Source: Candidatus Falkowbacteria bacterium (lineage in GTDB: Bacteria; Patescibacteriota; Patescibacteriia; UBA11705; JABHMO01). From it: a stretch of DNA of 64,000 nucleotides. The translations under genes and the position numbers were made by a program. The notes beneath the pieces are model-generated. The model did no database searches. It worked only from the letters and a program-made list of their open reading frames with translations, and was not told where the DNA came from. This document shows, one piece after another, positions 14,505 to 14,559 of the stretch. The stretch is from positions 1 through 64,000 of the forward strand of contig JABJBF010000023.1 in NCBI GenBank assembly GCA_018665965.1, in the 5' to 3' direction. Position 1 is the stretch's first letter; each line of letters begins with the position of its first letter.

Positions 14505-14559
14505 TTGACGTTCGGTTTCTGTTCGGTATAATGGTAGTAGATGCGAACAGAAACCGAAC
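14505..14559 (+). promoter_or_regulatory. Sigma70-like promoter (TTGACG-16-TATAAT) overlapped by two inverted GTTC-N7-GTTC / GAAC-N7-GAAC boxes (candidate LexA operator)
   Basis: -35 at 14505-14510 and -10 at 14527-14532. Box 1 'gttcggtttctgttc' at 14510-14524 lies in the spacer. Box 2 'gaacagaaaccgaac' at 14545-14559 is its exact reverse complement. Located upstream of the four-helix-bundle gene and lexA. Confidence 0.5.

Follow-up and report, generated by a model that had tools for sequence, protein, structure and literature searches.

A predicted pair of LexA operators at the lexA promoter of a presumed small SOS operon in Patescibacteria, with a conserved DnaA-box-like 9-mer nearby

The LexA regulon of Patescibacteria was reportedly described by Sanchez-Osuna, Barbe and Erill in 2017, in a study said to have appeared as Environ Microbiol 19:3465. 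A LexA of the alphaproteobacterial type can also be gained by lateral transfer, as in the case of Acidobacterium. A later publication of this laboratory cites the Patescibacteria study (Sanchez-Osuna, Barbe & Erill 2017) as a direct-repeat case, and LexA motifs of the direct-repeat kind are treated there as having evolved independently (PMC7739468). The box recognized in Alphaproteobacteria is GTTC-N7-GTTC (PMC8565304, PMC4951493), that of Gram-positive bacteria, the Cheo box, is CGAAC-N4-GTTCG (PMC4951493), and in other phyla the lexA promoter as a rule carries LexA sites in tandem (PMC4951493).

The locus described here lies in a 64-kb stretch of DNA, analysed over its whole length and hereafter called the window, and it resembles the Patescibacteria regulon of 2017 in belonging to the same superphylum, in having the same regulator and in the small, lexA-centred regulon. 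Among the motifs conserved at Patescibacteria lexA promoters, the box found in the window is the dominant one, and it is therefore very probably the motif published in 2017. Since the LexA network of Patescibacteria has been published, and is cited as a direct-repeat motif, the operator pair at lexA is regarded as an already known kind of site, of which the present one constitutes an ordinary instance. With the alphaproteobacterial box it shares the GTTC direct repeat and the 7-nt spacer; the half-site here is, however, GTTCG, and a conserved T-run makes up the spacer. With the Cheo box it shares the 5-bp half-site (CGAAC/GTTCG), the overlap with the promoter and the tandem sites at lexA, but the half-sites of the Cheo box form an inverted repeat, whereas those of the present box form a direct repeat with an 11-bp period; allowing up to one mismatch, CGAAC-N4-GTTCG had no match in the window. 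An earlier note on this DNA had spoken of an alphaproteobacterial-type box, a designation that holds for the formal pattern GTTC-N7-GTTC and fails for the conserved unit, which is GTTCG with a T-rich spacer.

The promoter upstream of lexA, on the forward strand, is of the sigma-70 type, has the form TTGACG-16-TATAAT, matches 11 of the 12 consensus positions, and is one of two sites of this quality between 13.7 and 18.5 kb. Its -35 hexamer, TTGACG, occupies 14505-14510, and its -10 hexamer, TATAAT, recognized from the sequence and from an alignment of close relatives, occupies 14527-14532. The earlier note had described a near-consensus promoter with a box in its spacer, and this description is exact (14505-14532). 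The first predicted LexA operator, O1 (GTTCGGTTTCTGTTCGG; 14510-14526, forward strand), is a GTTCG direct repeat with an 11-bp period whose first base is the last base of the -35 hexamer; it fills the spacer between -35 and -10 and in this way overlaps the lexA core promoter. The second predicted operator, O2 (14543-14559, reverse strand), carries the 16-mer core of O1 in inverted orientation. Accordingly, GTTCGGTTTCTGTTCG is found at 14510-14525, inside the promoter spacer, with its perfect reverse complement at 14544-14559, and the repeat finder reported these 16-mer arms as 100% complementary and 18 nt apart. Taken as 15-mers, the arms are GTTCGGTTTCTGTTC (14510-14524) and GAACAGAAACCGAAC (14545-14559), separated by 20 nt, so that both the perfect 16-bp inverted repeat and the 20-nt distance that had been noted earlier were recovered. 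From spacing only, transcription would start near 14539; relative to this position O1 would extend from about -29 to -13 and O2 from about +5 to +21, with their centres 34 bp apart. In the position-specific scoring matrix (PSSM) described below, O1 scored 26.4 of a maximum of 29.1, and O2 scored 22.7.

The comparison set comprised one genome per species and consisted of 80 Patescibacteria loci with LexA proteins 59-88% identical, 79 of which could be scored; the closest loci bear the labels Kuenenbacteria, Falkowbacteria and Parcubacteria, confirming that the window is of CPR origin. An exact GTTC-N7-GTTC is found just upstream of lexA in over half of the set. The lineage consensus, derived from a PSSM of the sites upstream of lexA, is nTTCGgTTTTTGTTCGg, and the matrix reads nTTCG-gTTTTT-GTTCGg, with a T-run conserved within the so-called N7 spacer (68-96% T at positions 8-11). 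A box of at least 11 bits was identified no more than 800 nt upstream of lexA in 78 of the 79 loci, and PSSM matches of at least 12 bits numbered 112 within the 750 nt upstream of lexA (80 loci), versus 18 in the remaining ~750 kb. The first box always displays the same orientation and register, TTGAC-box-TATAAT, between -35 and -10; TTGAC itself is kept in the aligned promoters of 13 close relatives and in the majority of the 79 loci, and the columns GTTCG..T..TGTTCGG of O1 are invariant within the close clade.

Copy number and arrangement vary beyond this first box. A second box is present in 35 loci, two of which have a third, and 43 loci have a single box. The second box is inverted in the clade of the window (12 loci: L001-L011 and L013; in L012 it is direct) and in Uhrbacteria loci, and it is direct in 11 other loci; in six loci, GTTCT is repeated three times with an 11-bp period. 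This variation in orientation and spacing among loci gives the boxes the look of independent operators, and the spacer bases of O1 and O2 differ from each other in the relatives. As judged from these sequences, what has been conserved is no palindrome but an asymmetric direct-repeat box, of which a locus carries one to three copies.

The real statistical support for the box is comparative. The bare GTTC-N7-GTTC pattern is not rare in the window, with 3 matches versus 1.6 expected, the third of them (57056) lying inside a membrane-protein ORF. The specific 16-mer, allowing up to 3 mismatches, had 4 matches versus 0.45 expected, a number reached in 0 of 100 shuffles. A PSSM scan of the window revealed no other intergenic LexA box, including ahead of the UvrD/PD-(D/E)XK helicase at 58001. 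Further PSSM matches of at least 14 bits, at 27101, 28038, 57056, 59872 and 63059, were all located within ORFs (for WD40 proteins, a CvpA-like protein, a UvrD-like helicase and a hypothetical protein) and were set aside as apparently due to chance. The genes recA and uvrA are absent from the 64-kb window and from the related loci.

Because the window holds no further intergenic box, the claim of a regulon rests on other genomes. The box was found ahead of 7 separately promoted p82-dinB operons, namely that of L049 and those of six metagenome loci, p82 being a gene for a small conserved protein next to dinB; in L049, p82-dinB is unlinked from lexA and has its own box of 23.8 bits, and in L092 one box precedes lexA and another precedes p82-dinB. 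In L065, a box of 26.8 bits lies ahead of an operon with a radical-SAM protein, and the radical-SAM gene splB is a recurrent SOS gene under LexA control (PMC4951493). A metagenome scan with the exact consensus 16-mer gave 124 matches, of which ~30 were in promoter context before lexA and six directly before p82-dinB without lexA, the latter being the metagenome loci just mentioned. About two thirds of the 124 matches, which fell in unrelated DNA and had no promoter context, were discounted as chance, and the scan with this 16-mer brought no new regulon member besides lexA and p82-dinB. Occurrence of the motif at the promoters of other SOS genes, one of the checks suggested by the earlier note, was therefore observed in related genomes, at p82-dinB and radical-SAM promoters.

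The cognate regulator is encoded at 15075-15677 on the forward strand. It combines a winged-HTH DNA-binding domain (PF01726) with an S24 peptidase domain (PF00717), and it matches the equivalog profile TIGR00498 with 197.8 bits (cutoff 110.95). In an alignment with the LexA proteins of E. coli and T. maritima, the latter being the closest solved structure, the Ala-Gly cleavage bond and the residues Ser119 and Lys156 of E. coli LexA are conserved, and hence the residues for self-cleavage are intact. The recognition helix, SSPATVHQHLQTL, is one that we take to be more like that of Gram-positive LexA than that of alphaproteobacterial LexA. Protein and half-site were found to change together: wherever the half-site is GTTCT (11 loci), the DNA-binding domain of LexA is distinct in its helix and wing, SPSTVH...NRELEPTD, while GTTCG loci encode a LexA with SPATVH/STATVH...ARSIEL. 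Since this co-variation is probably a single evolutionary event, it lends weak support to LexA as the protein that reads the box.

Downstream of the promoter, the genes follow in the order four-helix-bundle gene, lexA, a gene of 154 aa, a gene of 82 aa (p82) and dinB, and the four-helix-bundle, lexA and dinB assignments of the earlier note were confirmed. The order lexA, 154-aa gene, p82 and dinB is kept in the majority of the 13 closest relatives, and the order lexA, p82 and dinB is conserved more widely than the one including the 154-aa gene. Just upstream of the locus lies a 971-aa ORF resembling major vault protein, with a higher G+C content.

The 154-aa gene (15771-16235, forward strand), which we call mini-SRAP, encodes a compact protein with a SRAP (SOS-response-associated peptidase) fold and a divergent sequence. 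It had no match to Pfam or NCBIfam profiles, SRAP profiles included, even at E <= 10, and a profile search of PDB sequences found none; only 51 homologs were identified, all of them unannotated. An AlphaFold2 model based on the alignment of homologs reached a pLDDT of 94.7, and the top 4 Foldseek matches of the model were BT_1218 (chains A and B), YedK and HMCES, the best matches being exclusively SRAP proteins. Residues C2, E77 and H142, the last within the motif HDRMP, are invariant in 36 homologs, and from motif resemblance they would be equivalent to the catalytic residues of YedK. According to the modelled fold, this family appears to be a compact SRAP variant that is missed by profiles. 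The earlier note had called the gene SRAP-like, and the call was right, as shown by the SRAP fold found with Foldseek and the invariant Cys2, Glu77 and His142.

The last two genes overlap, p82 (16733-16981, forward strand) extending past the start of dinB (16971-18188, forward strand); p82 was recognized by synteny, and dinB, encoding DNA polymerase IV and last in the presumed SOS operon, by profile matches. The window p82 had no match in Pfam, NCBIfam or PDB sequences. It is a constant partner of dinB, and its homolog in L049 falls just below the cutoff for DUF6504 (23.5 bits, cutoff 24.2). Between the 154-aa gene and p82 there is a non-coding gap of 497 nt (16236-16732), partly conserved in relatives, that contains no LexA box; for this reason, the co-regulation of dinB in the window is only assumed, and its co-transcription with lexA is one of the points we infer.

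Taken together, these findings lead us to read the site as the autoregulated operator pair of LexA at the lexA operon of Patescibacteria, to which we assign a rough probability of 0.85. The anatomy of the site, its conservation, its recurrence at the level of a regulon and the integrity of LexA are established here; what we infer is that LexA binds and represses, where transcription starts and how far the operon extends. Each box of 16-17 bp would be one LexA operator, a direct repeat of the GTTCG half-site with an 11-bp period. A LexA dimer at O1 would keep RNA polymerase from the -35 and -10 hexamers, and a second dimer at O2, just past the transcription start, would block promoter clearance. 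Once DNA is damaged, LexA would cleave itself, stimulated by RecA, and thereby release from repression one transcript carrying the four-helix-bundle cassette, lexA, the mini-SRAP gene and probably p82-dinB. The proposal of a LexA operator serving a small SOS operon with lexA, a SRAP-like gene and dinB, already made in the earlier note, finds support in 78 of 79 lexA promoters and in the p82-dinB promoters, and it is backed as well by the joint change of half-site and DNA-binding domain and by the intact, cleavable LexA.

Three other readings of the site were weighed against the LexA operator pair. The perfect inverted repeat might form a DNA cruciform or an RNA hairpin acting as terminator, attenuator or processing site, as its arms are 100% complementary around an 18-nt loop and it is the only perfect looped inverted repeat of at least 16 nt in the 64 kb. 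The left arm, however, lies between -35 and -10 and hence outside the transcript from the lexA promoter, and the right arm is not followed by a run of T. Across 13 related loci, 0-3 of the 16 bases differ between the two arms, which resemble each other no more within a locus than between loci (2.08 vs 2.00 mismatches, permutation p = 0.68). In the 13-sequence promoter alignment, standard pairs amount to 92.3% vs 93.0% in shuffles, the covariation score is 0.090 vs 0.096 in shuffles, and 6 of 13 sequences fail to pair at the two base pairs that vary most; moreover, the second box is direct in 11 other loci and missing in the 43 with a single box. A search against Rfam found no structured RNA in the region, and the sole match in the window was one tRNA-Glu. 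The arm comparison without excess likeness, the lack of covariation and the position of the left arm upstream of the inferred start led us to reject the hairpin or cruciform, which we hold to be highly improbable. The perfect 16-bp palindrome is instead incidental and results from the presence of two copies of an asymmetric operator, both close to consensus.

The palindrome had also raised, in the earlier note, the possibility of a different dimeric repressor, and the boxes could indeed be bound by a protein other than LexA, either a dimer or tetramer that reads the palindrome or a protein encoded by an adjacent gene, given that the four-helix-bundle ORF and an upstream gene of 92 aa (p92) have no known function. 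Against such a repressor, the box accompanies lexA in 78 of 79 genomes regardless of the four-helix-bundle or p92 gene, it recurs at dinB and radical-SAM promoters, its half-site GTTCG is the half-site of the Gram-positive LexA box CGAAC-N4-GTTCG, and the half-site variant follows the clade of the LexA DNA-binding domain. Nor is the palindromic arrangement conserved, the second box being direct elsewhere and absent in 43 loci; arm complementarity is not under selection, and the suggestion of a palindrome-reading repressor is not supported. We regard a repressor other than LexA as unlikely, if somewhat less so than the hairpin. The constant register of the first box between TTGAC and TATAAT would also be expected if the spacer sequence were a promoter element read by the sigma factor or RNA polymerase, and no operator. 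Further copies, nevertheless, lie outside the core promoter, with either orientation and with variable spacing; GTTCT is found as triple period-11 repeats in six loci; the sequence is missing from other strong promoter-like sites of the window; and the motif is confined to DNA-damage genes. A pure promoter element is accordingly as improbable, in our judgement, as the hairpin, and the LexA operator pair is the reading that we retain.

Between the operator pair and lexA, the window contains the four-helix-bundle gene (14610-15008, forward strand), which is the first ORF of the predicted transcript and belongs to the 23S rRNA intervening-sequence (IVS) protein family (PF05635, E 2.6e-17; TIGR02436, 80.9 bits). 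The ORF is bracketed by two stem arms on the forward strand, recognized from inverted repeats and the minimum-free-energy fold, the 5' arm at 14569-14624 pairing with the 3' arm at 15004-15053. The duplex of these flanks has a predicted energy of -21.2 kcal/mol vs -9.6 +- 2.9 kcal/mol in shuffles (z = -4.0), and flank duplexes beat shuffles in 15 of 16 PF05635 loci (p <= 0.01; median z -5.2). It is on this flank-duplex test across lineages that the claim of a stem rests; the fold of the whole leader RNA was not significant (z-score -0.92). The bracketing inverted repeats measure 20-40 nt, and their sequences are unrelated between lineages. In ~16 of 79 loci, box and lexA are separated by a PF05635 gene, whose subfamily varies; the closest relative, L001, lacks the four-helix-bundle gene. 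The likeness to the IVS elements of 23S rRNA thus consists in a PF05635 ORF enclosed by a long stem that its flanks form; the difference is one of location, as the cassette here sits between an SOS promoter and lexA, in the leader of the lexA mRNA, and the window contains no rRNA. By analogy with these elements, the data imply that about a fifth of the lineages have acquired a stem-flanked PF05635 cassette in the lexA leader, and that the leader may undergo processing of the RNase III type.

A further element of the promoter region is an exact DnaA-box consensus 9-mer, TTATCCACA, located at 14488-14496 on the forward strand, 8 nt upstream of the -35 hexamer (about -51 to -43 relative to the inferred start). 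The identity of TTATCCACA with the DnaA-box consensus is taken from PMC8203912. Neither this 9-mer nor the stem around the four-helix-bundle gene had been remarked on in the earlier note. Within 120 nt on either side of the first box, the exact 9-mer was found in 67 of 79 loci, and a version with one mismatch in 7 more; the background expectation is 0.004 per locus, and the enrichment at lexA promoters is ~200-fold. Both orientations of the 9-mer are found, and its positions fall into several classes, upstream of -35 or downstream of -10. At all 7 separately promoted p82-dinB boxes the 9-mer is absent, and this absence, together with its conservation at lexA, suggests a separate, lexA-specific input. 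Its putative binder would by analogy be DnaA, the obvious candidate. Neither dnaA nor recA homologs were detected in the window or in 200 loci by tblastn with approximate E. coli queries, and no oriC or cluster of DnaA boxes was found in the window or in the 200 loci.

A precedent exists in the E. coli uvrB and recN promoters, which are co-regulated by DnaA and LexA (PMC6015884, PMC8203912). A consensus DnaA box adjoins LexA operators within one promoter region there, as it does at the present locus. The present case differs in that the box is single, lies at lexA itself and is conserved across the superphylum, with DnaA as its presumed ligand. That DnaA provides a functional input to lexA in Patescibacteria through a single consensus box, and that such an input has not yet been described, is a tentative proposal that we consider possible and rather doubtful.

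As to what these observations mean, the operator pair at lexA adds an instance and no new concept, a description at the level of the superphylum being available. Its genes indicate that uncultured CPR bacteria with reduced genomes keep a minimal SOS circuit made of lexA, a SRAP-like protein shielding abasic sites and a translesion polymerase. The 154-aa family with its SRAP fold widens the SRAP proteins past the reach of sequence profiles, and the cassette in the lexA leader shows IVS-type elements colonising mRNA leaders besides rRNA. Finally, the conservation of the 9-mer hints that replication status feeds SOS control in bacteria not yet grown alone; if this is true, the level of the SOS repressor would be coupled to replication status across the whole superphylum.

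An exact match to the DnaA-box consensus, TTATCCACA, lies on the forward strand at 14488-14496, 8 nt 5' of the -35 element of the lexA promoter. Among the 79 scorable Patescibacteria lexA promoters compared with the window (set L001-L080), this 9-mer is kept in 67, with one mismatch in 7 more, and occurs in both orientations and in several position classes. Conversely, it was not found at the 7 separately promoted p82-dinB promoters, all of which carry the LexA box, that is, the 16-mer direct repeat predicted as LexA operator. The conservation of TTATCCACA at lexA and its absence from the p82-dinB promoters suggest that a second regulatory input would act on lexA through this motif; DnaA is possibly its source. 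Two other copies are present in the window: an exact one on the reverse strand (44629-44637), beside a GC-rich hairpin in a region of about 1 kb without long ORFs (43858-44903), and a third at 60728, within a helicase ORF.

Downstream of this promoter, the lexA leader contains a four-helix-bundle ORF (PF05635; 14610-15008) flanked by inverted-repeat arms at 14569-14624 and 15004-15053. The ORF is likewise enclosed in L003, L006, L008, L009, L011-L013, L035, L053, L057, L063, L065, L067, L068 and L078, and is missing from the closest relative, L001. The sequence of the flanking repeats is wholly different between lineages, yet their pairing is always retained, with a median z of -5.2 in the flank-duplex test and p ≤ 0.01 in 15 of 16 loci. 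By analogy, the ORF and its stem look like a cassette of the 23S rRNA intervening-sequence type, here inserted into an mRNA leader.

The 154-aa protein encoded at 15771-16235 (+) gave no match in profile searches, and an SRAP (YedK/HMCES) fold was predicted for it with confidence. Cys2, Glu77 and His142 are invariant in its family, whose known members (about 50) are all found on Patescibacteria-like contigs, usually immediately 3' of lexA. This protein represents a compact SRAP subfamily.

A 497-nt gap without ORFs of at least 40 aa (16236-16732) separates the SRAP-like gene from p82, and is partly conserved (e.g., 16314-16383 shows 75-87% identity in L001, L003 and L007). Searches of the gap against Rfam and for LexA boxes gave no match; the gap might encode a small peptide or an RNA, or contain the dinB promoter. 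A repeat of about 43 nt (about 82-86% identity) has two copies within the gap (16446-16488 and 16569-16611) and one 30 kb off (47079-47123). The following gene, p82 (82 aa; 16733-16981, +), overlaps the dinB start and is a constant dinB partner across Patescibacteria, with LexA boxes directly upstream of it wherever dinB is separately promoted. A p82 homolog scored 23.5 bits against DUF6504, below the cutoff of 24.2. Possibly, p82 assists the translesion polymerase as an accessory factor.

Upstream of the lexA region, a 971-aa vault-like protein (10813-13728, +) with shoulder and repeat domains of the major vault protein (PF11978, PF17795) is encoded by an ORF of 43-47% G+C, compared with about 34-36% in its surroundings. 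A homolog with 44% identity occupies the same position in L002; such a protein is unusual for a CPR bacterium.

Regarding operator diversity, three GTTCT half-sites with an 11-bp period occur in L064, L066, L071 and L072 (about 35 nt 5' of the lexA ATG), and also in L043 and L046, the 3' end of the triplet being only a few bases from the start codon. This arrangement suggests that, in this clade, the lexA mRNA would be leaderless or very short-leadered and the operator would comprise three half-sites. In five GC-rich metagenome contigs (L098, L101, L137, L167 and L180), whose LexA is just 40-44% identical to that of the window, the identical 16-mer box was found in promoter context, followed by lexA-dinB; the direct-repeat LexA box type may reach past the sampled Patescibacteria clades.
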